Origin: Staphylococcus phage Fi4S2
Sequence record: PV037056.1
Direction: 5' to 3' (one strand)
Length of the DNA stretch: 64,000 nt
Below are positions 9,090-56,277 of this stretch, in pieces. Made by a program: the position numbers and the translations under genes. Numbering within the stretch: position 1 is the stretch's first letter; each line of letters begins with the position of its first letter. Under the pieces are notes generated by a model, which was given only the letters and a program-made list of their open reading frames with translations, was not told the origin of the DNA and made no database searches.

Positions 9090-10241
9090 ATGGTAAAAGC
9101 TATTGGAGATTGGATAGATTTAAACAATGAAATAATGCAAGTTGATGATAAAGGTAAAAACAAATTGTATAAAGATAAGGAAGCTTTACAATCTTATCAG
9201 AATTATGTTAAAGAGAATACATTGGAATTTGACAATGAAGTAGAGAGAGTTCGGTACCTAACTAAAGAAGGCTTATATGATTCTTTCTTCGATTCTGTAC
9301 CCGATACTATCATTAAAGAATTAACAGAGTTTGCTTACAGCTTCAATTTTGAGTTCCAAAGTTTTATGGCTTGTCAAAAGTTTTATGAGGGTTATGTTGT
9401 ATTAAAACATAATAAAGATAAGTCTTTTAATTTTGTAGAAAACTATGAACAACACAATGTGCGTGTAGCCTTATATATGTTCCAAGATGACTATGCAAAA
9501 GCTAGAGCCTTTGTAGAAGAGCTTATGACTCAAAGAGTACAACCAGCAACACCTACTTATACTAATGCAGGTAAAGGAAATAGAGGAGAATTAAGTTCTT
9601 GTTACTTATTTAATGTAGATGATACTTTAGATTCTATGAACTTTGTTGAAAACAACACTAAGAATGCTAGTAGAGTAGGTGGAGGAGTTGCTATAGACTT
9701 CACTCGTATTAGACCTGCTGGAGCTACAGTAATGGGTAATCCTGGAGCTAGTAAAGGCGTAGTTCCTTATGCCAAAGAGATTGAACAAGGATTAAGTCGT
9801 ATAGACCAAGGTGGTAACAGACCAGGAGCTGGAGCAGGGTATTTAAACATCTTCCATATGGACATCTTTAACTTTTTAGATGCCAAGAAGATAAATGCTT
9901 CAGAATCTTTACGTTTATCTACATTGTCAATTGGTGTTATTATACCTGATAAATTTATGGAACTTGTTAAATCAGGTGAAGACTTCTACACATTTGACAC
10001 TTACGACATCTTCTTAGAGTATGGTAAGTACATGGATGAGGTTGACTTTAATACAGAATATGATAAACTAGTAGCTAATGAGAATATTAGAAAGGAAAAG
10101 CACTCAGCAGAAGACTTAGTAACTAACATTGCTAAAACACAGCTAGAGTCAGGCTATCCTTATGTATTTTTCATTGACACAGCTAATGAGAATCACCCTC
10201 TAAAACAGTTAGGTAGAGTTAAAATGAGTAACTTGTGTAAA
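9090..10241 (+). pseudogene. nrdE: nrdE (class Ib RNR alpha) 5' portion only, interrupted at the catalytic SNLC motif
   Basis: The N-terminal and central RNR-alpha sequence, including SSCYLF, is present. The ORF ends MSNLCKQMHL with a stop inside the inserted element. No downstream nrdE exon is present in this window. Confidence 0.7.
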
Positions 10242-10367
10242 CAAATGCACCTTTAAGGAGCAATCCTTATCGAAAAATCCATCTAAAACGGGGAAGCCTA
10301 AGTCGTATAGATAAGGTAATCCGTTGCTAAATATATAAATTGTAGTCACTCTAAGGAGAGTGATAGT

Positions 10368-10949
10368 ATGAAAAACAAACCTGTAGGGTCAGTATACGTT
10401 ACTACATGCCATATTAATGGTAAAAAATATATAGGTAAGTTTCTTTATAACAGAATAAATGATTGGAAAAAATATCTAGGTTCAGGAAGGTACCTGAAAG
10501 AAGACATAAAAAAATATGGTAGAGAAAACTTCAGTAAAAAGATAATAAAAGATTATTACAGCAAGAAAGAACTAGAACAGGCTGAAGAAGAGTTAATTCT
10601 ACAAACTGGTGCAGTATATGACACTAACTACTACAATGTAAAGTTGTCCTCAATAGGAGGGGATGTTTTTACAACTAATCCACGCAAAGAAGAATTACGT
10701 GCTATGAGAAAACAGCAAATGAGTGGAAAAGGTAATCACCAGTACGGTAAGACTAAAACTAAAGCTATGGTAGATTCTGTAAAGAAAGCTAACTCTAGAG
10801 CTATAGAGGTGGATGGGGTATTTTACCCTAGTACATCAGAGGCTTCAAGAACACTAGGAGTTGGACATACTACAATAGGCTACAGGTTAGACTCTGAAAA
10901 CTATCCTACATATAAAAGATTGACACCTAGAAAGTTTGAAAAGAAATGA
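10368..10949 (+). CDS. GIY-YIG homing endonuclease
   Basis: N-terminal GSVYVTTCHINGKKYIGK is a GIY-YIG motif. There are repeated NUMOD-like basic segments and a C-terminal HTH. RBS AAGGAGAG. The ORF is inserted in a hairpin loop (flanks ATATAAATTGTAG / CTACAATTTATAT). Confidence 0.85.
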   Translation: MKNKPVGSVYVTTCHINGKKYIGKFLYNRINDWKKYLGSGRYLKEDIKKYGRENFSKKIIKDYYSKKELEQAEEELILQTGAVYDTNYYNVKLSSIGGDVFTTNPRKEELRAMRKQQMSGKGNHQYGKTKTKAMVDSVKKANSRAIEVDGVFYPSTSEASRTLGVGHTTIGYRLDSENYPTYKRLTPRKFEKK

Positions 10950-11816: not shown

Positions 11817-13646
11817 TTAGGCTTGTAATGTTTGTTGCTTGTAAACCAAGCTAACAGTAATTTTCTTGAAGCTTCTGATTGGGTAAACTGTCATAGCAAT
11901 TTGAGCTTGATTTCCAATTACACTAACTTGGATGTCTTCAGCATCAAATCCTTGGATTTCTTGGTCTGCAACTTTCTCATTCAAGTATCCGATTAAGAAG
12001 TCTTTGATAAGTGAAGCACTTGTTGCAAATGTTCTTGTACCAATGAATCTATTATCTAGTCTAACTTTAAGTTCAGATACTAAGAAGTCATTAGCTTCTC
12101 CGACTGACATCTCTTGTTTAACAGGGTCTGATTTGTCATTGTAAGTAGTGATGTCATTGACAATACGGAAGAATGTCTCAGTACGACTACGTACAAATTC
12201 AATAGGTACAATACCATTATCATTCAATTGGTCTAATCCTGTACCATCTAAAACAATGTCTAGGTTGTTCAAGAATAAACGTTTGAATGTAATAGATTCA
12301 CCAATGTCTAACCCTGTAGCTAGTCCACCGATAGCAGAAGCCATCAAGTAAGCTGGTACATGTAAAGCACGACCATCTTGCATTGAGAACTCACCACTAG
12401 AAGCAATAAGCATTACACGTGGGTTAGATTTTAATCCTGATACACGAGCTAAGAGTTTTTCTTTAGATTCTTTGAATCCTCCACCTACAATAGCTCTCAT
12501 AGGTTCACCAATGTCAGAACGCTCTTTAACAAAGTGTCCTGCCTCAGCATGTACAGATTCTTTATCAGTTAATGGTACTAGGTAGTAACCACCTTCATTA
12601 GCAAACTTAGCAAATTTGTCTGACCAAGTAGTAACAGGGTCTCCGTTAGAACCACCTGATAAAGCTACCTCATCAAATGCTTCGATTTGCTCACCTTGAA
12701 CTTCTTCAAAAGCTACAAGGTCACTGTACTCTGTTTGAAGTTTGATGTCACCAAAAATAGCTTTAAGGTAAACAAAGTCTTCTTTAACACTTACGTTAGT
12801 TGCCTCATCTAAAGTTGTAGTATCAACATTCTTATCACCAAATGGAGAAACTTTCACTTCAAAGTCAGGTAAGTTATTAATGTCAGAGATAAGTGAGTTA
12901 GCATCTGTATATGTTTTAGCTAAGTCGTAAATTTTAGCAATTCTTCCAGTACCTTCAGAAGTTGATTGTGTAGCTGTAACATTAGCGCTCTCTTCTCCTG
13001 CTTCAACCTCTACATTTTCAGGGTCTTCTGCTTGAGTAGCTCCTAAAACAACATTACCTTTCTTAGCTTCTTCAGCATCAATCTTGCTTCCTACTGATAA
13101 AACTAATTTAGTTGATTTATGAGTTTCAGGGTCTTTAACAACACTATAAAATGCTGAACCTTCATCACCTGTATAATGGATTTGGAAGATGTTACCTAAG
13201 TTGTCGTATACTTCAAATCTGTTATCATCAGGGAAATTAACTTTTAAACGTTTTGAGTCTGAGATTGTGTTATCCTCTAATGCTACAGAGATATTGTTAG
13301 ATACACTACCGTAAACCTTAGAAAGTACTTTCATTCCAGTTGTTGTTAACTGAGATGCTTCTGCATTCTCTAAACGCATAGCAAGAATTGTTCCTGCTGT
13401 TGCATCAGGAGAGCCTGTCCAAGCTAACTCAATTGCATCCATCAGTTCACCTGAACGGAAAATGCTTCTTGCAAATGTAATATTTTTTATTTCATAGACT
13501 GTATTAGGTTTTCCTCCCTCTGCCTTACCGATAAGGCAAAGAACTTTCTCACTGTCACTTGCAGTACCACTTAAATTACTTGTGTCTGTTTTAATGACTG
13601 TGTGAGGTCTACTAATGTCATAACGTGGGTATTGTATTTCTGCCAT
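11817..13646 (-). CDS. tail sheath protein
   Basis: 609 aa. Length, position upstream of the tube gene, and sequence character fit a contractile tail sheath. Confidence 0.8.
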   Translation of the reverse strand: MAEIQYPRYDISRPHTVIKTDTSNLSGTASDSEKVLCLIGKAEGGKPNTVYEIKNITFARSIFRSGELMDAIELAWTGSPDATAGTILAMRLENAEASQLTTTGMKVLSKVYGSVSNNISVALEDNTISDSKRLKVNFPDDNRFEVYDNLGNIFQIHYTGDEGSAFYSVVKDPETHKSTKLVLSVGSKIDAEEAKKGNVVLGATQAEDPENVEVEAGEESANVTATQSTSEGTGRIAKIYDLAKTYTDANSLISDINNLPDFEVKVSPFGDKNVDTTTLDEATNVSVKEDFVYLKAIFGDIKLQTEYSDLVAFEEVQGEQIEAFDEVALSGGSNGDPVTTWSDKFAKFANEGGYYLVPLTDKESVHAEAGHFVKERSDIGEPMRAIVGGGFKESKEKLLARVSGLKSNPRVMLIASSGEFSMQDGRALHVPAYLMASAIGGLATGLDIGESITFKRLFLNNLDIVLDGTGLDQLNDNGIVPIEFVRSRTETFFRIVNDITTYNDKSDPVKQEMSVGEANDFLVSELKVRLDNRFIGTRTFATSASLIKDFLIGYLNEKVADQEIQGFDAEDIQVSVIGNQAQIAMTVYPIRSFKKITVSLVYKQQTLQA

Positions 13647-13667
13647 TTTTTAGTCACCTTTCAATAT

Positions 13668-13895
13668 TTATTTTAATTTCTTACCTAAATACTGCTCTAA
13701 GTAAGGGATAAAATCCTGTTCTGCATGTTGGTAATATTTACCTTGCATGAATGCTTTAAATCCTTCTACTTGACCTGCTGTGAGACCAAAGTAGTTCTCA
13801 GCAGTATCTAAGAAAGTAAAGATGTCTGCATAGGGTTTAGACGTTTTAACTGTCTTAACTGTTTGTTTCTTCTTTGCCATCTGTGTAACCTCCAC
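13668..13895 (-). CDS. hypothetical protein
   Basis: 75-aa ORF in the structural operon. Confidence 0.45.
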   Translation of the reverse strand: MEVTQMAKKKQTVKTVKTSKPYADIFTFLDTAENYFGLTAGQVEGFKAFMQGKYYQHAEQDFIPYLEQYLGKKLK

Positions 13896-14715
13896 GTGTT
13901 TTAAATAATAGTTCTGTTATTTCTCTAGCTATTGTGTAATCAATAGAATGTGTTACTTGGTATCTAATTGTTACAGGTCTACCATGTATTGGTCTTTCAC
14001 CATCATCGTATACAGGAGCCATGTCACCAAAAGTAAGATTTTGCAACTTCATAACATTTTGCTCTTCTAGGTTCTCTCTTGACATTATTAGTATCATTTT
14101 AAGAACAGCATCCAAGCATCTTGCTGTATCAATTGAGTTACTTAGTGGTATAACAACTACCGATTCATCGGCCTCGAACCCTTTCACACTACCTTTACTA
14201 TCTCCTCTATATTCAATATAAAAGAATGTATAGTAATTACCAACTAAATGTTCATTACCATCCTTTCTCATCTTTAAGAGGTTTTTATCTAAAGTTACAT
14301 TATCATAATCTGAGAATTGAAGGTCAGTAGATATTGGCATAGAAGCTAGTTCAGTAGGGAACTCGAAGAATAAGTAATCTTCAGCTTCTTGTATTTCTAG
14401 CTGTACAGAGTTCTCATCCCCCTCTTCTCCTTCATAAGAACCTAAGATATTCCCTAGTGATGAACCATTCTCATTGCTGTTTCCCAGTTGCACAACATAA
14501 CTTGCTGTAGCTTCTAATGGGCTCTGTGGAAATGTATAGGAAATATTAACGTCTAACTTAGGATTCTCACCACAAAAATCTTGTAGGAAATTGTCCCTCA
14601 CCTCACTATCAAAGTCTTTTAAAACTTCCTTCATAATATAGCACTTTGATAGTAATGCTTTTGTTTTCTCTTTTAATAATTGTGAAATATATGTATCAGG
14701 GCTTACTATTGCCAA
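13855..14715 (-). CDS. hypothetical structural protein (neck / tail-completion region)
   Basis: 286 aa, between the capsid and sheath genes. Confidence 0.5.
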   Translation of the reverse strand: MAIVSPDTYISQLLKEKTKALLSKCYIMKEVLKDFDSEVRDNFLQDFCGENPKLDVNISYTFPQSPLEATASYVVQLGNSNENGSSLGNILGSYEGEEGDENSVQLEIQEAEDYLFFEFPTELASMPISTDLQFSDYDNVTLDKNLLKMRKDGNEHLVGNYYTFFYIEYRGDSKGSVKGFEADESVVVIPLSNSIDTARCLDAVLKMILIMSRENLEEQNVMKLQNLTFGDMAPVYDDGERPIHGRPVTIRYQVTHSIDYTIAREITELLFKTRGGYTDGKEETNS

Positions 14716-30638: not shown

Positions 30639-31922
30639 TAATTGGGGCTATAGTAAGTAATTACTATAGAAAACTCTACTAAAAGGGCAAAGCTGAATAA
30701 TGAATAAGCTGATAAGAGAGCCTAAGTCCTAAAAGGATAGTGGTAATCCCTTCCTAAATTCTTGACATCATAGATTCACTATGCTATGATTAAATCAAGA
30801 TAAATGGCTAACGACTAAATTTACTGGTATCTATTCAAAAGGGAATAAGTAGAACAGTATAAGAAAACTTGTCAATTTAGCTAAAATAGGAGAATTGAAA
30901 ATGACTAAAAGAAAAACCCATGATGAATTTGTAAAAGATGTTTATAATCTAACAGGTGATGAATACACTGTAGTAGGAACCTATACACTAACAAAAAACA
31001 AATTAGAGATGAAACATAATGTTTGTGGTAACACATATGAAGTAAAAGCAAATAACTTTATATGTGGTAAACGATGTCCTGTATGTATGAAAAAGAAAAA
31101 ATACAATACCTCTGAAGATATAAAACAGAGGATAGATGATAAATATCAGGGTCGTTTAGTTATGGTAGGTGACTATGTAGACTTACAGACAAAAACATCT
31201 TTTAAATGTACTATCCACAATACTTATATAGATAGAGCTCCTGGAGTAGTTTTGTCTACTAATACTAACGTATGTAAAGAATGTATAGCAGAAGCTTCTA
31301 GTAAACGACAATTGAGTAATTCCAAGTACATTCAGGATAAGTTAGATAAGTTACACAATGGAGCTATCATAATTATAGGTGATTATAAAGGTAATCATAC
31401 AAAAACTCTTTTTAAGTGCTTAGACTGTACCAAAGAGTTTGATGCAGAGCCTAATTCTGTTACTAGAATAAGTGGATGTCCAAGATGCAAATTATCAAAA
31501 GGTGAAAAAGAAATATCTTCAATTCTTAACTCTTTAAATGTGTCATATATACCTCAAAAGACTTTTGATGATTGCATATACAAAAGAAAGTTACCTTTTG
31601 ATTTTTATATAGAGAGTGCAAATTTACTAATTGAATATGATGGTTTACAACATAGTAAGCCTATAGAGTACTTCGGTGGAGAAGAAGCCTATAAAAAGCA
31701 AGTTATTAAGGATTCTATAAAAACCAAGTATGCTACTGATAATAATATCAAGTTAGTGAGATTTAATTACAATACTCCTAAGACAGAAATGAAGAAAACT
31801 ATTGTAAAACTTATTGACAAGAAGTAATGTAGAGAATCCTTAACCTAAACTAAGGATTATGAGATAGTCTAGTCCCACTCTTAAATGAGTGTTAAAGTAT
31901 CACGAAAGTGAGGGTATAATCG
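30639..31922 (+). mobile_element. group I intron in terL
   Basis: P7 strands AACGACTAAAT (~30820) and GATAGTCTAG (~31875) flank an endonuclease ORF. The segment 30709-30750 is ~95% identical to the inverted intron copy at 11235-11277. Confidence 0.65.
30895..31827 (+). CDS. intron-encoded endonuclease: multi-CxxC zinc-finger N-terminus + PD-(D/E)xK (DUF559/Vsr-like) C-terminus
   Basis: Repeated C..C motifs (CGNTYEV, CPVCM, CKEC, CPRC), then PFDFYIE...LIEYDGLQH...D..K..KLVRF, the DUF559-type nuclease signature. Confidence 0.7.
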   Translation: MKMTKRKTHDEFVKDVYNLTGDEYTVVGTYTLTKNKLEMKHNVCGNTYEVKANNFICGKRCPVCMKKKKYNTSEDIKQRIDDKYQGRLVMVGDYVDLQTKTSFKCTIHNTYIDRAPGVVLSTNTNVCKECIAEASSKRQLSNSKYIQDKLDKLHNGAIIIIGDYKGNHTKTLFKCLDCTKEFDAEPNSVTRISGCPRCKLSKGEKEISSILNSLNVSYIPQKTFDDCIYKRKLPFDFYIESANLLIEYDGLQHSKPIEYFGGEEAYKKQVIKDSIKTKYATDNNIKLVRFNYNTPKTEMKKTIVKLIDKK

Positions 31923-33620: not shown

Positions 33621-34123
33621 CAAAAATAAACAAGAATGATACAATAATGGATTTAATTAGACATGATTTACCTTTATCAAAAACTTTGGAATCTCCTACA
33701 AAAGAAGAAACGACTGAAGGTTCTCATAAAGTAGCTGAAATCTTAGCTCCTATTATCAGAGAGATGTATTATACATATGAATTTAGAAAGTTCACACCTC
33801 AAGAAGGGGATAAAGAAAGTGCACACTCTTTAACTTTTAAAATTACAGGACGTAATGAAGATAGATTTATTGCACTTGCTAAGCTATTTAAAATATTTAG
33901 TGACTATAGGTTAAGCCCTATTGAAGCATCTAAAGTGTTTAGAGAGGAATATGTAGACCAAGGTAAGGTTATGGAATTAGGAGAAGGGGTTGTAGTAACT
34001 AAACTATACTTTACTAATCCTATGGAATCTCCTGACCTTACACTTATCATTGACTACACAGACCAAGAAACATATGATGAGCTAATGCGTATTAGAAAAG
34101 AAGTAGAAGAAAGTTTAAAATAG
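33617..34123 (+). CDS. hypothetical protein
   Basis: 168-aa ORF overlapping the previous stop. Confidence 0.5.
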   Translation: MTKINKNDTIMDLIRHDLPLSKTLESPTKEETTEGSHKVAEILAPIIREMYYTYEFRKFTPQEGDKESAHSLTFKITGRNEDRFIALAKLFKIFSDYRLSPIEASKVFREEYVDQGKVMELGEGVVVTKLYFTNPMESPDLTLIIDYTDQETYDELMRIRKEVEESLK

Positions 34124-34126
34124 GGG

Positions 34127-34155
34127 TTGCAAAAATAACAAACTTATGTTATATT
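34127..34155 (+). promoter_or_regulatory. sigma-A-like promoter
   Basis: TTGCAA - 17 nt - TATATT. Confidence 0.5.
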
Positions 34156-35183
34156 AAATATAGAAAAGTAGTTTCCATCTAATCAACGCTCTAACCGCTA
34201 ATTAGAGATTATTTATTGGTCACTCAGAGGACTCTAGTATACTATAAGTATATGTGGAGTTCTTTCAATTCCACTTATAGCATAAAAAACTGGTTACATA
34301 AGTGCTATTATGTAATCTGTATATCCCACAAAGTTTAGTGGTTTTTAGAGGGTATACTCCTATAGTAGTAAGTTAAAGTTAGCTACTCTAGCTTATGTAA
34401 ACCTATGGAGAGTTCTATAGGGAACATCTTATATAGTTGCTGAACACGTGCTGTGACTATCCTGTTATCAAAAAACTTATCTTACCATCTGAGGTTACAG
34501 GTTTCATGATGGGACTGTTTTTCGTGGTACCCGTCCCGTTTTCCAGTATAAAACAATAACCGATAAGTGACGGGAGATATTGCTAGGTTCATACCACTTG
34601 AGTTGCTTCGAGTGAGCCTAGCGGAATTACCACCATACGCTTACACTAGCCTATGGTGGAGATATAAGTACCTTGTAACTAAACCATATGAGAGTTGGCT
34701 GGTGTCGGGTCGCTACTTGCTGGCATTGACCCCTTATGACATTTCAGAAAGTTACTAAAAAACACTAGTTAGAACGTATGCTAACTAGGACTGTAATAGT
34801 CGATAGGAAGTTTAAAGGGTTTCACCTATCAAACTCATTTCTACCCGTAATTGAGGATAAATAAAGTACGTGTCGTCTTACTGGCGTGAGCAGTTACACG
34901 CGATAACTCAACGTGTTTAAATAAAGAGTGAACTTGTGGGTAGAACAGTGATGATAAACCCTCCGTCTATGTAAAAGACGTAAAACACAACCCCGTAGGT
35001 GGTTCGTAACCTTCCGTTGTGCTTAGGGTTGTGCCGAACAACTGCGTATGTATTGTAGTGACATCGAACCAATAATCTACAAATAGCTAAATGGAGCACA
35101 CTTTGTGTGTTTCTATAAGCGTCCTGTGACTCGACCCTCGGGGCGTTTATAGAAGTATACAAAATTAGAAGGGTCGAGATAGT

Positions 35184-35747
35184 ATGGAAAAAGAGATTTG
35201 GAAAGACATACCAGGTTATGAAGGTCTGTATCAAGCAAGCTCATTAGGTCGTATTAGAAGCTTAGACAGAAAATTAGTTACCAAAAATGGAAGTGTTAAG
35301 ATTATTAAAGGTTTAATTAAGAAGCCTTCTATAGACAAAAATAATCGGTTTACAGTAGGGCTAAGCAAAAAAGGTAAAAGGAAATCATTTACCGTTCATA
35401 AAATAATTGCGCTAACATTTATTGGAGAAAGACCTGAAGGTTATGAAGTTTGCCATATAGATGGAAATAATCAAAATAACAAGCTAGGCAATATTAGGTA
35501 CGATACACATAGTCAAAATGAGATTGACAGGTATAGATATGGGGATAAAACTCCATCAGGTAAACTAACTATTAGAGATGTTTTAGAAGTAAGAAATCTA
35601 TATGCTACAGGAAAGTATAATCAAAAAGAACTATCTAGAAAGTTTAAAGTAAATCAAAAAAGCATATGCTATATTGTTAATCGTTCATCATTTTCTTGGT
35701 TAAATGATGATGGTTCTATTATTGAATCAGATACAACGATAAGTTAA
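35184..35747 (+). CDS. HNH homing endonuclease (NUMOD4 + HNH_3; I-HmuI-like)
   Basis: WKDIPGYEGLYQASSLGRIRSL is a NUMOD4 motif. The HNH motif is CHIDGNNQNN..NL..THSQN. Confidence 0.8.
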   Translation: MEKEIWKDIPGYEGLYQASSLGRIRSLDRKLVTKNGSVKIIKGLIKKPSIDKNNRFTVGLSKKGKRKSFTVHKIIALTFIGERPEGYEVCHIDGNNQNNKLGNIRYDTHSQNEIDRYRYGDKTPSGKLTIRDVLEVRNLYATGKYNQKELSRKFKVNQKSICYIVNRSSFSWLNDDGSIIESDTTIS

Positions 35748-36378
35748 TTATCAGACATACGAGAGATACCGTATGTTGCCTGGCAGAGGCTTTATATCTG
35801 ACTGTTGGTCTCGACTGGTGACTCCTTCCAGTCCAGTATCTAATTCACACAGAGCCTTAGCGCTCATCTAAATTTCCGTGGTTCTGACTGGTGCGCACTG
35901 GTCTTTACTGAAAACTTAGGGTTTCCCTGTACTAGCGTTAGTATCGGTTAAGCGTTAGATAAGGTGAACCGTACCTACTTTCCAAATAGGGATAACTCAA
36001 AATTAGATAGCAACTTGAGAGTGAAATAAGTCGGACAGCTTTATATTCAGAAGAAGTGTCAGAGAATATAAAGTTATGGCTTGAGATACCGAGCCTTGAT
36101 TATTAGGTATCCGACACTTGGCGTGTAACCTAAGTTTATGGTTAGATGGGTTACAACATAAGGAAGCTGATTTTCTCTGTATAGCTTAGAGGAACTCCAT
36201 AAGACAGCCAAACCACTGTATATTCAGTTACTATGACAAAGCTATATGAGGTAAACTCTTATATAGCTCCCTGTTATAGTGCATACACGCAGTGACGAGC
36301 GTTTCAACATCAAGGATACTCATACAATTGTCGTAAAATAATATTAACCGTAATCTAAGTACGGGAGCCTTGATGGGA

Positions 36379-36412
36379 CACCTATTAATTAAAATAGGTG
36401 TTTTTTTTTTGT
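36379..36412 (+). terminator. intrinsic terminator
   Basis: CACCTATTAATTAAAATAGGTG followed by T11. Confidence 0.75.
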
Positions 36413-36446
36413 TGACATTAATTTTTTAGTATGCTACAATAAATAC
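36411..36446 (+). promoter_or_regulatory. sigma-A-like promoter
   Basis: TTGACA - 17 nt - TACAAT. Confidence 0.55.
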
Positions 36447-36472
36447 ATAGAAAAAATAAAGGAGAATCAATA

Positions 36473-36856
36473 ATGAAGAAATTAATTATTGTAGCTATTT
36501 TAAGTGTATTTTTATTAGGAGCCTGTTCTCAATCAGACAGAGTAAGTGATAATCTATCTAAGGAATCTGACAATTTCAATACAGTAAGAAAGGTAACTGT
36601 TATTAACGCTATAAAACAAGATGTTATTTTCCAAATGTCAGGTAGAATGTCTATTAAAGCAGATAAAGAAGATAATCAACTTGAAGTTGTAGTAGAGAAG
36701 AAAAAAGGACAGTATCAAAAACATATTATAGGTCTTTCTGATAATGTCTCTTATGTAGTAGAGGATGTAACAACTAAGAATGTAAGTAACTATCAATATG
36801 AAATTAACTACAATCCTAAAATGTGGATTCCTGCTAAACCTGATTATAAAGATTAG
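36473..36856 (+). CDS. lipoprotein
   Basis: Signal peptide with a lipobox LLGAC; RBS AAGGAG. Confidence 0.7.
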   Translation: MKKLIIVAILSVFLLGACSQSDRVSDNLSKESDNFNTVRKVTVINAIKQDVIFQMSGRMSIKADKEDNQLEVVVEKKKGQYQKHIIGLSDNVSYVVEDVTTKNVSNYQYEINYNPKMWIPAKPDYKD

Positions 36857-36862
36857 AATTAA

Positions 36863-36888
36863 AACACCTATTAAGGTGTTTTTTTTGA
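36863..36888 (+). terminator. intrinsic terminator
   Basis: ACACCTATTAAGGTGT followed by T8. Confidence 0.7.
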
Positions 36889-36940
36889 CATTTATAGATA
36901 AGTATGATAAGGTATTAATATACAATAAGGAGGAGATTGA

Positions 36941-37399
36941 ATGCGCAATATAGTAACAAGAGGTAGGTTATATGAATTATTTATGGAAGATAGTGAGAGA
37001 AGTAAACTTAATAAAGGTGATTTTATAGCTAAAATGCCTAGTATTAGCCATGACAAGGAAGAAAAAGGCATTAAGTTTTATTTCAACTTTACTAAAGATA
37101 ACAATAATAGTGATTTTGATTCATTTACTATCTTAGTAACTCCTGATAGAGAATATCTAGAAAAAGACAGTATAGAACTAGCACTTATAGGTATGAAACC
37201 AGGAGTAGTATTTAAAAAAGTAAACAATGATTTTGATACATTCTTTAAAACGTTTATTCAATTAAGAGATGAATATATAGAGTTTAAAGGTGAATTTAAA
37301 GAATCAAACAAAGAAAAAATAAAAATAAGTAGAGAAGTAGAAGAATTAAGGAATCAAGAAATGAAAGCTATGAAGGATTCTTTAAATAAATATGTATAA
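36941..37399 (+). CDS. hypothetical protein
   Basis: 152 aa; RBS AAGGAGG. Confidence 0.55.
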   Translation: MRNIVTRGRLYELFMEDSERSKLNKGDFIAKMPSISHDKEEKGIKFYFNFTKDNNNSDFDSFTILVTPDREYLEKDSIELALIGMKPGVVFKKVNNDFDTFFKTFIQLRDEYIEFKGEFKESNKEKIKISREVEELRNQEMKAMKDSLNKYV

Positions 37400-54946: not shown

Positions 54947-54992
54947 GAGCAGGAGCCCCTGGGGCTTCTCTCTCTTTTTTCTTTTTTTTTTA
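54947..54992 (+). terminator. intrinsic terminator
   Basis: GAGCAGGAGCCCCTGGGGCTTCTC followed by long T runs. Confidence 0.7.
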
Positions 54993-55015
54993 TTTAATTT
55001 TTTTAGGGCAACTTT

Positions 55016-56056
55016 GTGGGCTACTACTTAGAAGAATTGTGGACTACTACTTAGAAGGATTGCTAATATCCATTCTGTTGTCTATAACTACTAAGCAAAC
55101 CCCTCTCATAGATAACCAATATAGATTAGGTATTATTTATCTATTAGAAACTACTATCATATAGAGTTAGCGTAGTGTTGCTTACTCTATAGAGGTTGAT
55201 AACAAACTGTCGGCTACTACTATAGTAAAACACAAAATGACCGCTTTCCTGAATACATTATCAGACTAGAAGCGGTTATCACATACTAACTATTTAATTA
55301 TACTCATTACAACGCTATATAAATAGCTATAGCGACTAAACACTGTGGATAGCTACTATAGTAAACCCGTTACTGTTATAACTATAATCCATAACTTATA
55401 GCTTACCTGTAACTACTCTATCAGTATACCTTATCTATATAGCGCTACAGATGAAGTGTGGATAGCTACTATAGTTAATCACAGTTTTATATAGACAATG
55501 AATCCTATATACTATTGCTATTCTATAACTGAACAGTAGGTACACGCTCTAGAAGCTCTCATATACTATCGGTAACTACTTAGAATATAACCGCTTCTCT
55601 CTACTGATTGTGGACTACTACTGTATCTAAATAGCAATTGAATAGAGTTAGCTTCAGCTGTCGGCTACTACTATAGTAATTCATGAAGCGGTTGAAAAAG
55701 TGTTTTGAAAAATTGATTTGAAATTTTGGAAACTAAAAAGGTAGGGTGGCTACCAGGGGTACCTTCTACTCTCTATTATATATCTGAGTGATACTTACTT
55801 AGCCCTAGTCGATAGTTATTAGATTGTTATAGAGTTAAAGGAGGAACTAAATAACAGTTGAGTATTTAAGGAGTTTAGTTATGAAATTATAGAGTTAGTT
55901 TTTTAGGATAGTTGCTAGGGCTTTCTATTCAGTACCACTCAATTAGATAACAGTTAAGTTAGGAGGTCTTAACTGTTAAATACATTATAACATAGCTTGA
56001 GGATTTCTTTTTATCTTTTGCAATTTCATGGACTACTACTGTAGATATATTGACTA
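55016..56056. repeat. array of at least 12 degenerate ~22-nt direct repeats in ORF-free DNA
   Basis: Repeat copies start at 55016, 55039, 55085, 55148, 55209, 55345, 55409, 55457, 55571, 55610, 55660 and 56030. Approximate consensus is GTGGACTACTACTATAGTAA, with irregular spacers. Confidence 0.75.
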
Positions 56057-56065
56057 CAATACATA

Positions 56066-56186
56066 ATGACGTATTTAGGATTTTAACGATGTTTATATAT
56101 AACTATAATTATAGTAGTATTATAGTTCTTTAATAGTTATATAACTATAGTTACTAATAAAGGTTAATAAATTCTTAAATGTGTCA
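56066..56186. repeat. MITE-like element, copy 3
   Basis: TGACGTATTTAGG ... TTAAATGTGTCAT; homologous to the 27866-28135 pair, with internal segments in inverted arrangement. Confidence 0.7.
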
Positions 56187-56277
56187 TAATACTTTGTGTA
56201 CAACATAAAAATAATAGTTGACTCTGTTCAGGATAGATGATATACTTAGTTTACAGATATAAGAGAGGAGAATAATT

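Follow-up and report, generated by a model that had tools for sequence, protein, structure and literature searches.

A modular promoter-to-terminator locus of structured RNAs in a Twort-like Staphylococcus phage, a probable expanded counterpart of kayvirus lncRNA1

Staphylococcus phage Fi4S2 (sequence record PV037056.1) is a Twort-like Staphylococcus myophage (Herelleviridae, Twortvirinae), and the 64,000 nucleotides (nt) of its DNA analysed here, referred to as the window, contain a gene-poor stretch of about 2.2 kb (34127-36412) with a promoter, a terminator and a single credible gene, which encodes an HNH endonuclease. Comparison with related phages shows this locus to be a mosaic of small, independently folding RNA modules that are shuffled, lost and gained like cassettes. 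The best overall explanation, to which we assign a probability of roughly 0.72, is that it is a non-coding RNA operon of a Twort-like myophage and an expanded counterpart of lncRNA1, an abundant long non-coding RNA (lncRNA) of kayviruses. The modular dissection, the pseudoknot of the module named A below, the domain named B and the invasion by an endonuclease gene appear to be undescribed in the searchable literature.

Homology with the kayvirus locus is shown by sequence comparison. K-like phages carry a 0.7-0.9-kb gap free of coding sequences (CDSs) upstream of the same Ser/Thr phosphatase gene and with the same terminator; the gap spans 13595-14229 (minus strand) in phage K, and lncRNA1 of vB_SauM-515A1 spans 13730-14300. 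Phage K matches window positions 35758-35805 with 94% identity and 36287-36410 with 84% identity. Kayvirus lncRNA1, next to tRNA-Met, was found to be an abundant lncRNA by RNA-seq in two studies (PMC9241854, PMC7698491), in which it made up 2.2% of RNA-seq counts (PMC7698491), lncRNA1 and a second lncRNA made up about 10% of normalised counts, and homologous loci contributed 2-8% (PMC7698491, PMC9241854). In kayviruses these loci rank with the regions of highest transcription (PMC7698491, PMC9241854). The features of the window locus are as follows.

34127-34155, + strand: promoter TTGCAA-17-TATATT with TG extension (extended -10, sigma-70-type), from a consensus scan; presumed transcript start
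34204-34273, + strand: module E, nested hairpin with its core at 34226-34266 (blastn, 86-88% to L002, L008 and L016; nhmmer)
34403-34514, + strand: putative degenerate paralogue of spacer I and module C, DUF3800-I-like (nhmmer)
34515-34577, + strand: module D, hairpin CCCGUC...GACGGG enclosing GUUUUCCAGUAUAAAAC (blastn)
34578-34988, + strand: orphan non-coding segment, predicted to be hairpin-rich, including a hairpin at 34765-34788 (Golestan-100 comparison)
34989-35097, + strand: window-specific segment, left edge of the HNH-containing replacement (breakpoint)
35098-35183, + strand: 5' leader of the HNH gene, 86 nt, hairpin UUCUAUAAGCGUCC/GGGCGUUUAUAGAA (sequence reading and predicted fold)
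35184-35747, + strand: HNH homing endonuclease gene, 187 amino acids, NUMOD4 + HNH_3, I-HmuI type (Pfam, PHROGs, PDB)
35752-35846, + strand: module A, pseudoknotted RNA of about 90 nt (blastn, covariance model)
35846-35961, + strand: segment G, hairpin GACUGGUGCGCACUGGUC, common to Golestan-100 alone (blastn; predicted fold)
35962-36223, + strand: module B, 262-nt RNA with a predicted closing helix around five hairpin arms (blastn)
36224-36286, + strand: spacer hairpin I, CUAUAUGAG-GUAAA-CUCUUAUAUAG (blastn)
36274-36412, + strand: module C, DUF3800-I RNA motif including the intrinsic terminator (Rfam RF02969)
34226-34266 (E), 34515-34577 (D), about 35098-35747 (HNH leader and gene), 35758-35843 (A): sharp-edged similarity blocks
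35962-36223 (B), 36224-36286 (I), 36287-36376 (C), 36378-36411 (terminator): sharp-edged similarity blocks, 3' part

The data support a non-coding, structured, promoter-to-terminator RNA locus with an HNH gene. Both boundary signals of the preliminary description, made from the letters of this DNA, were confirmed. The promoter at 34127 is conserved in vB_SsapH-Golestan-100 (Golestan-100), the nearest database relative (about 95% identical over the shared parts of the locus), and the homologous loci of K-like phages are headed by a like design, TTGACA-17-TGnTATAcT; because promoter-like sites show no overall enrichment (24 found versus 19.7 expected), the call rests on position and conservation. 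The intrinsic terminator consists of a 12-bp stem (36375-36404) followed by a ten-T run ending at 36412, and the lone internal terminator candidate on the + strand of the locus, at 36078, is weak and lacks a proper run of T. No tRNA was called by ARAGORN anywhere in the window.

The composition and folding of the locus match what had been proposed from its letters. GC content is 0.40-0.43 in the flanks of the HNH gene versus 0.28-0.33 in the surrounding DNA and within the HNH gene, and the flanks, described earlier as dense in stem-loops, fold better than dinucleotide shuffles (z = -2.05 for 34160-34577, -3.03 for 34578-35097 and -3.75 for 35748-36412; +0.97 for the neighbouring coding control 36473-36992), with the + strand more stable than the - strand (-298.7 vs -267.7 and -188 vs -171.5 kcal/mol). 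The stem-loops named at that stage, CTTTATATTC/GAATATAAAG and GACGGG/CCCGTC, are real helices within modules B and D, and the repeated GACTGGTG motifs are located in module A and the following segment G. Three loci have an 11-13-mer, GUUGCUUCGAG, in common, which was put down to chance. The NUMOD4 + HNH_3 endonuclease at 35184-35747 stood up to Pfam as the sole credible open reading frame (ORF): the ORFs at 34567 (+ strand, 63 amino acids) and 34917 (- strand, 105 amino acids) had no match in Pfam or PHROG searches, and no Shine-Dalgarno sequence was seen upstream of the GTG at 34567, which had been described as lacking a ribosome-binding site.

Shuffled RNA modules across related phages

The window was compared by blastn with 20 related loci in a similarity map, in which L002 denotes OPT-SC01, L004 phage K, L008 T2-102, L010 PG-2021_2, L019 Golestan101-M and L022 B_UFSM5. 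Similarity takes the form of sharp-edged blocks found in differing combinations and orders among related phages. The smallest array, that of PG-2021_2, is only 216 nt long and reads A-C-terminator; T2-102 has the order A-x-B-C-D-x-E-terminator, OPT-SC01 B-I-C-D-x-E-terminator and PG-2021_35 A-B-I-C-terminator. Spacer I is present in the window, L001, OPT-SC01, L003 and L013 and absent from T2-102, L014 and L015, module E stands just before the array terminator in other phages, and in Golestan101-M module B lies in a 1.9-kb gap at a second lncRNA locus near the holin. A tRNA-Met or tRNA-Thr gene is found upstream of many of the related loci.

This mosaic bears directly on the suggestion, made in the preliminary description, of a single large ornate RNA of the GOLLD, ROOL or HEARO class. 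Such an RNA would have a single tertiary fold of 1.5-2 kb, with the endonuclease gene in a peripheral loop. The size of the locus, its GC enrichment, its strong promoter and terminator and its better-than-shuffled folding would all suit such an RNA, as would the position of the kayvirus homologues beside tRNA genes, like GOLLD and ROOL (PMC9241854). The suggestion was not borne out, as the blocks recur separately and reordered, a complete array can be as small as the one in PG-2021_2, A-like units occur as independent genes and no long-range helix between the flanks of the HNH gene has comparative support. Rfam scans, run at the gathering score over the whole window and at E<=10 over 33900-36600, point the same way. 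The former returned just two matches (DUF3800-I and RAGATH-18), and the latter gave no riboswitch, self-cleaving ribozyme, group I or II intron, RNase P, tmRNA, GOLLD, ROOL or HEARO; OLE and raiA were likewise without a match, and GOLLD, ROOL, HEARO, OLE and raiA gave none at E<=0.01 in phage K, P68, OPT-SC01 or Golestan-100. Other low-score Rfam matches in the locus (cripavirus internal ribosome entry site, small nucleolar RNAs, microRNAs, speF) were considered chance level. HEARO (the IscB omega RNA) was also rejected on its protein: the ORF encodes a 187-aa NUMOD4 + HNH_3, I-HmuI-like protein and not an IscB-type RuvC+HNH protein. We regard a single ornate RNA as very improbable.

The genomic neighbourhood also raises the reading of a long cis-acting leader or 3' untranslated region that regulates the terminase-region or phosphatase operon, for example by attenuation. 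There is no terminator between the upstream CDS, which ends at 34123, and the locus, and the array lies upstream of the Ser/Thr phosphatase gene in most annotated Twortvirinae loci. Set against this are the strong terminator at the end of the locus, followed by a separate near-consensus promoter (TTGACA-17-TACAAT, 36412-36440) serving the next operon, the upstream neighbour, which varies between phages, and the stand-alone A-like units of temperate phages. Cis regulation therefore ranks, with the intron reading discussed below, as the least probable of the alternatives.

Two observations concern the neighbours of these loci. The first gene downstream of the window array (36473-36856) matches Phage_VG64 in Pfam and a PHROG labelled recombination directionality factor, a name that is doubtful because the gene begins with a lipoprotein-like signal sequence (MKKLIIVAILSVFLLGAC). 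In phage K (12500-15500, reverse strand), a T-arm-like stretch ending GGTTCGAGTCCTC lies about 100-230 nt upstream of tRNA-Met with no ARAGORN call, and just upstream of it a leader common to P68 gives a sub-threshold TEG147 match (41-44.5 bits vs 56.1) that recurs in several K-like leaders.

Structure and conservation of the modules

Comparative alignment, proposed earlier as a check for covarying base pairs, found covariation in modules A, B and C. Module A comprises a hairpin (H1), a helix (H2, YGGCAGA/UCUG-A-CYG) and a second hairpin (H3), and a six-base pseudoknot, in which the loop of H1 (AGAUAC) pairs with the 3' tail (GUAUCU), marks its 3' edge. The pseudoknot pairing reads GAGUGA/UCACUC in siphovirus copies and takes a third sequence, CCAA(C)GCAC/GUGCUUGG, in the metagenomic copy L051. 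Copies of module A were found by blastn in most of 246 Staphylococcus phage records, and a covariance model built here scores 101.6 bits in the window and 109 bits in phage K, with no further copy in the window. Aligned to the model, 17 copies have 99.7% of cells paired, and 11 of the 20 pairs change on both sides, values reached by none of 500 shuffles (slid controls, 19-44%). H3 was left out of this formal count, since the alignments offset its two sequence types from each other by one column, and was checked by folding each sequence singly.

Relatives of module A also occur outside the array. Temperate S. aureus-type phages carry A-like units directly downstream of SprX or near S808, and each of the four copies read (two in L022, one each in L046 and L050) is equipped with its own TGTTATAAT -10 box and its own terminator and extends further at its 3' end. 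In B_UFSM5 (L022, 1903-3147), a 1.2-kb gap between amidase and restriction-modification genes contains SprX at 109.5 bits and, after it, two tandem A-like small RNA (sRNA) genes, for which there is no Rfam match above threshold. The most divergent A-like pseudoknot (48.9 bits) is that of L051 (metagenome contig Ga0194138_10042520, 1530-1700), where the copy abuts the 5' end of a tRNA gene after a terminator-like hairpin; this arrangement suggests A-tRNA co-transcription outside Twort-like phages.

Module B is known from nine loci at 92-96% identity, including the different genomic locus of Golestan101-M. Across these copies, 98.8% of the cells of 72 predicted pairs are paired and three pairs change on both sides, with 2-3 of 500 shuffles reaching the observed values and slid controls at 36-47%. 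The module has no Rfam family match, and a 20-mer from it had no match in IMG/VR. Module A, as a pseudoknot of about 90 nt, and module B, as a 262-nt multi-helix domain, would be new structured RNA classes.

Module C matches the DUF3800-I RNA motif (Weinberg et al., 2017; PMC5737381) at 36274-36412 with 45.5 bits versus a gathering score of 44.2. It keeps the conserved core UUAAC-CGUA-AUCUAAG-UACG-G, its P1 helix changes on both sides in six of eight pairs with none broken (Twortvirinae and Sextaecvirus copies), and in P0 the pairing ACGC/GCGU becomes ACGG/CCGU in the Sextaecvirus PG-2021_67. On score, core and terminator, module C is a borderline member of the family. A genome scan with the core motif recovered 13 strong DUF3800-I members (56-102 bits; Enterococcus, Lentilactobacillus, Mycoplasma, Clostridia), of which seven have a DUF3800 homologue adjoining the RNA; in the two Enterococcus loci whose neighbours were scanned, the DUF3800 gene follows a prophage lysin gene. 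The RNase H-like DUF3800 domain occurs in type VII retrons as well, and proteins linked to Cas12a2/Cas12a3-type CRISPR systems carry it as a fusion to TPR (PMC7736814, PMC10910872). With an Enterococcus DUF3800 protein as query, tblastn found no DUF3800 in the 64 kb of the genome that the window covers or in the Staphylococcus phage loci, and no Staphylococcus record matched among 50,697 phages or 72,556 plasmids. The phage DUF3800-I RNA is thus an orphan.

The 5' half of the locus is less widely shared. The outer stem of module E, GGACUC/GAGUUC, corresponds to AGAACUC/GAGUUCU of OPT-SC01. Module D has copies of 87-94% identity after module C in L002, L008, L009 and L016, and its 23-nt inner motif also occurs in lncRNA2 of phage K, in Golestan101-M and in four IMG/VR contigs. 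By nhmmer, 34403-34577 aligns with the I-C-D stretch of OPT-SC01 (E=4.5e-12), so that 34403-34514 looks like a degenerate second copy of C directly 5' of D, as in other arrays; this call is weak because the Rfam DUF3800-I model does not recognise the stretch. The segment 34578-34988 is known only from Golestan-100, with about 98% identity along most of the segment, and shows one compensatory change (A-U to G-C at 34771/34782). For 34989-35097 no homologue was found anywhere searched. Among homologue searches with the 5' 830 nt, a phage database at 'distant' sensitivity returned Golestan-100 alone, nhmmer against all the related loci collected returned just module D, module E and the degenerate stretch resembling C, and an exact 22-mer scan of metagenome contigs returned no match; nor did the upstream DUF7198 protein as an IMG/VR query.

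Such a patchy distribution might indicate decaying DNA, that is, gene remnants or recombination scars around a selfish endonuclease, without function at the RNA level. Content is highly variable between close relatives, some copies are degenerate (module A of L017, with H2 deleted, and the C-like copy of the window) and the 5' orphan segment lacks a distant homologue. However, compensatory changes keep the helices of A, B and C, and conservation of the 5' half equals that of the adjacent CDS (2.2% substitutions each between the window and Golestan-100, over 34260-34900 for the locus). Substitutions in the flanks show no clear third-codon-position bias, unlike the CDS control, in a comparison of two very similar sequences (window and Golestan-100). 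The internal ORFs without Pfam or PHROG match and the contribution of homologous loci to RNA-seq counts also speak against decay, which we consider highly improbable.

The homing endonuclease cassette and split genes of the window

The product of the HNH gene matches NUMOD4 and HNH_3 in Pfam (E of 6e-17 and 4e-10), its nearest solved structure is I-HmuI (PDB 1U3E, E=1.9e-13) and its best phage homologue is 49% identical. Within the leader, a predicted pairing joins CUCGACCCU to AGGGUCGAG, the ribosome-binding region. The leader travels with the gene: in PG-2021_67 it is 81% identical, with a 45% identical protein, and leader and gene stand there after a protein-coding gene. On the 3' side of the HNH gene of that phage come 1.29 kb that are free of ORFs and hold a C-like element, and beyond these lie six tRNAs. 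Golestan-100 lacks the HNH gene of the window locus and carries a different 370 bp in place of window 34989-35845 (857 bp). The breakpoint falls at 34988/34989, and substitutions rise to about 25% in the 88 nt before it (34901-34988) compared with 2.2% further away, a peak that fits a recombination or homing junction. Presence and absence are therefore shown, and the HNH gene is probably a free-standing homing endonuclease cassette.

An intron within an RNA gene had also been put forward. The HNH gene and its flanks would then form a self-splicing group I (or II) intron. I-HmuI-type HNH genes are classically intron-borne in SPO1-like and Twort-like phages, the window holds other endonuclease-bearing split genes (terminase, nrdE), and a predicted hairpin sequesters the ribosome-binding region, a trait of ORFs within introns. 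The comparison with Golestan-100 does not uphold this idea, because a replacement of 370 bp by 857 bp is no clean insertion. Module A, which abuts the stop codon of the HNH gene, is found without that gene in phage K and about 240 other records, the same leader and gene follow a protein-coding gene in PG-2021_67 and no relative among the mapped loci joins the two flanks of the insert directly. No intron covariance model matched the locus at E<=10, with the qualification that a 564-nt ORF insertion lowers the sensitivity of the Intron_gpI model. We give the intron reading very little weight, as little as cis regulation.

Split genes elsewhere in the window were noted in passing. The large terminase is split: the ORF at 31935-33431 matches the gpA ATPase profile from position 69 onward only, a 310-aa ORF with CapR-homology and treble-clef zinc-finger domains (30895-31827) lies just upstream of it, and the Golestan-100 annotation has two terminase pieces around a similar ORF, an arrangement that probably reflects an inserted intron or endonuclease. 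The ribonucleotide reductase large-subunit ORF (9090-10256) is truncated, and after it comes a GIY-YIG SegE/I-TevI-like ORF (10368-10949); here too an intron-split gene with a homing endonuclease is probable.

Two further features lie apart from the array. A TnpB/Cas12f1-like ORF at 1396-2670 (OrfB_IS605, Cas12f1-like TNB and HTH domains) is directly followed by the RAGATH-18 Rfam match (2714-2804, 65.8 bits), and together they look like a TnpB gene with a 3' guide (omega/re) RNA in a virulent phage genome. A 1.3-kb ORF-free stretch (54947-56277) contains about nine copies of a repeat of about 17 nt (GTGGACTACTACTTAGAAG, GTCGGCTACTACTATAGTAA, GTGGATAGCTACTATAGTAAA and others) and no similarity to the lncRNA loci compared; the repeats are iteron-like, perhaps of a replication origin or terminal-repeat boundary.

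Proposed mode of action and relation to known systems

Under the RNA-operon explanation, an early host-type promoter at 34127 would drive one transcript of about 2.2 kb that ends at the DUF3800-I terminator and forms a chain of autonomous domains: E, the C-like copy, D, the orphan segment, A, G, B, I and C. The autonomy of the domains is suggested by the A-like units of temperate phages, which exist as genes in their own right, each with a separate -10 box and terminator. By analogy with the kayvirus locus the RNA may be made in very large amounts, and its domains would most likely work in trans, by binding or titrating proteins; a role as a base-pairing regulator, a downstream-gene leader or a single ribozyme is probably not to be expected. 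The HNH gene and its flanks (34989-35845) probably entered by homing or recombination, and the gene, a selfish passenger, probably helps this array version to be inherited when infections are mixed.

Several points weigh against this explanation. A single transcript, its abundance and its processing are, for this phage, extrapolated from kayviruses. The DUF3800-I score is borderline, the kayvirus copies reaching 41-45 bits and true members 56-102 bits, and the DUF3800 (PF12686) partner gene was not found by Pfam among 30 ORFs of the window. Covariation in the pseudoknot of module A comes from essentially three sequence types and hence from few independent events, and that in module B is modest because its copies vary by just 4-8%. 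About 520 nt (34578-35097) have no homologue beyond one relative that is about 98% identical; their modelled structure draws on fold energy and one compensatory pair, and substitutions kept ten and broke six of the pairs in the minimum free energy model.

A more specific version would make the array an RNA anti-defence island, whose over-expressed RNAs, orphan copies of RNAs that otherwise partner nucleases or regulators of prophages, would be decoys that titrate or mis-programme host or prophage effectors. Phage-borne pseudo-ToxI repeats and RNA anti-CRISPRs are parallels for such RNA decoys. The orphan DUF3800-I RNA, the prophage relatives of A, the fast turnover of cassettes and the link to tRNAs fit the idea, which we hold to be speculative and rather unlikely since no staphylococcal target is known. 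If it were true, the rapid module shuffling would reflect an arms race, and the locus would be a host-range determinant invisible to protein-based annotation. Twort-like staphylococcal phages are among the leading therapeutic phages. The dissection replaces a loosely defined lncRNA by discrete units of 60-260 nt, open to deletion, pull-down and probing one by one, and it provides a first context of a DUF3800-I RNA without its protein, which bears on the role of this RNA class.

Among known systems, the T4 tRNA cluster contains the stable RNAs C and D and an embedded homing endonuclease gene, segB, that favours inheritance in mixed infection. The likeness lies in small stable RNAs with an embedded free-standing homing endonuclease gene; there is no sequence or structure relationship, the RNAs of T4 are linked to tRNAs whereas the window array has none, and SegB is a GIY-YIG and not an HNH enzyme. 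GOLLD and ROOL, large RNAs of Lactobacillales phages and prophages, share abundance, phage carriage and proximity to tRNA genes with the kayvirus homologues, and the lncRNA papers liken the kayvirus RNAs to them by location (PMC9241854, PMC7698491). A review states that the kayvirus RNAs resemble GOLLD and ROOL in sequence (PMC10383478), a statement that Rfam scans of the K loci do not bear out, and the window locus differs from both by its modular architecture and by matching neither covariance model. With the DUF3800-I family, module C has in common a score above threshold, the core, a covarying P1 and the terminator; it differs in that it has no partner gene, is one domain of a longer array and resides in a virulent phage.

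Module A has the same fold and the same invariant core, GCCCGGCAGAGGC...UAUCUGAC.GU, as the sRNA genes of temperate phages (SprY-SprX and S808 cluster), but in the window it is an internal domain without a promoter or terminator of its own, whereas the A-like genes of temperate phages have both. Identity of module A with SprY was rejected on grounds of position: SprY precedes SprX (PMC8501977), and the A-like genes come after SprX. To rli62 (RF01486), an sRNA of Listeria prophage A118, the relation is a resemblance of fold alone, as the match at 35655-35825, the strongest in the E<=10 scan after DUF3800-I, scores 37.9 bits against a gathering threshold of 83 and sub-threshold scores overall run from 37.9 to 46.1 bits.

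The closest known counterpart is kayvirus lncRNA1, for which the literature searched contains neither a dissection into modules nor a link to DUF3800-I. The window locus is about 3.5 times longer and adds the HNH gene, modules B, D, E, G and I and orphan sequence of about 520 nt. With a promoter of its own (34127) and no upstream tRNA-Met, it follows terminase-region genes, whereas the phage K locus lies downstream of tRNA-Met and of the gp233/gp232 genes. Modules A and C, the terminator, the promoter design, the downstream Ser/Thr phosphatase gene and the non-coding character are common to both.

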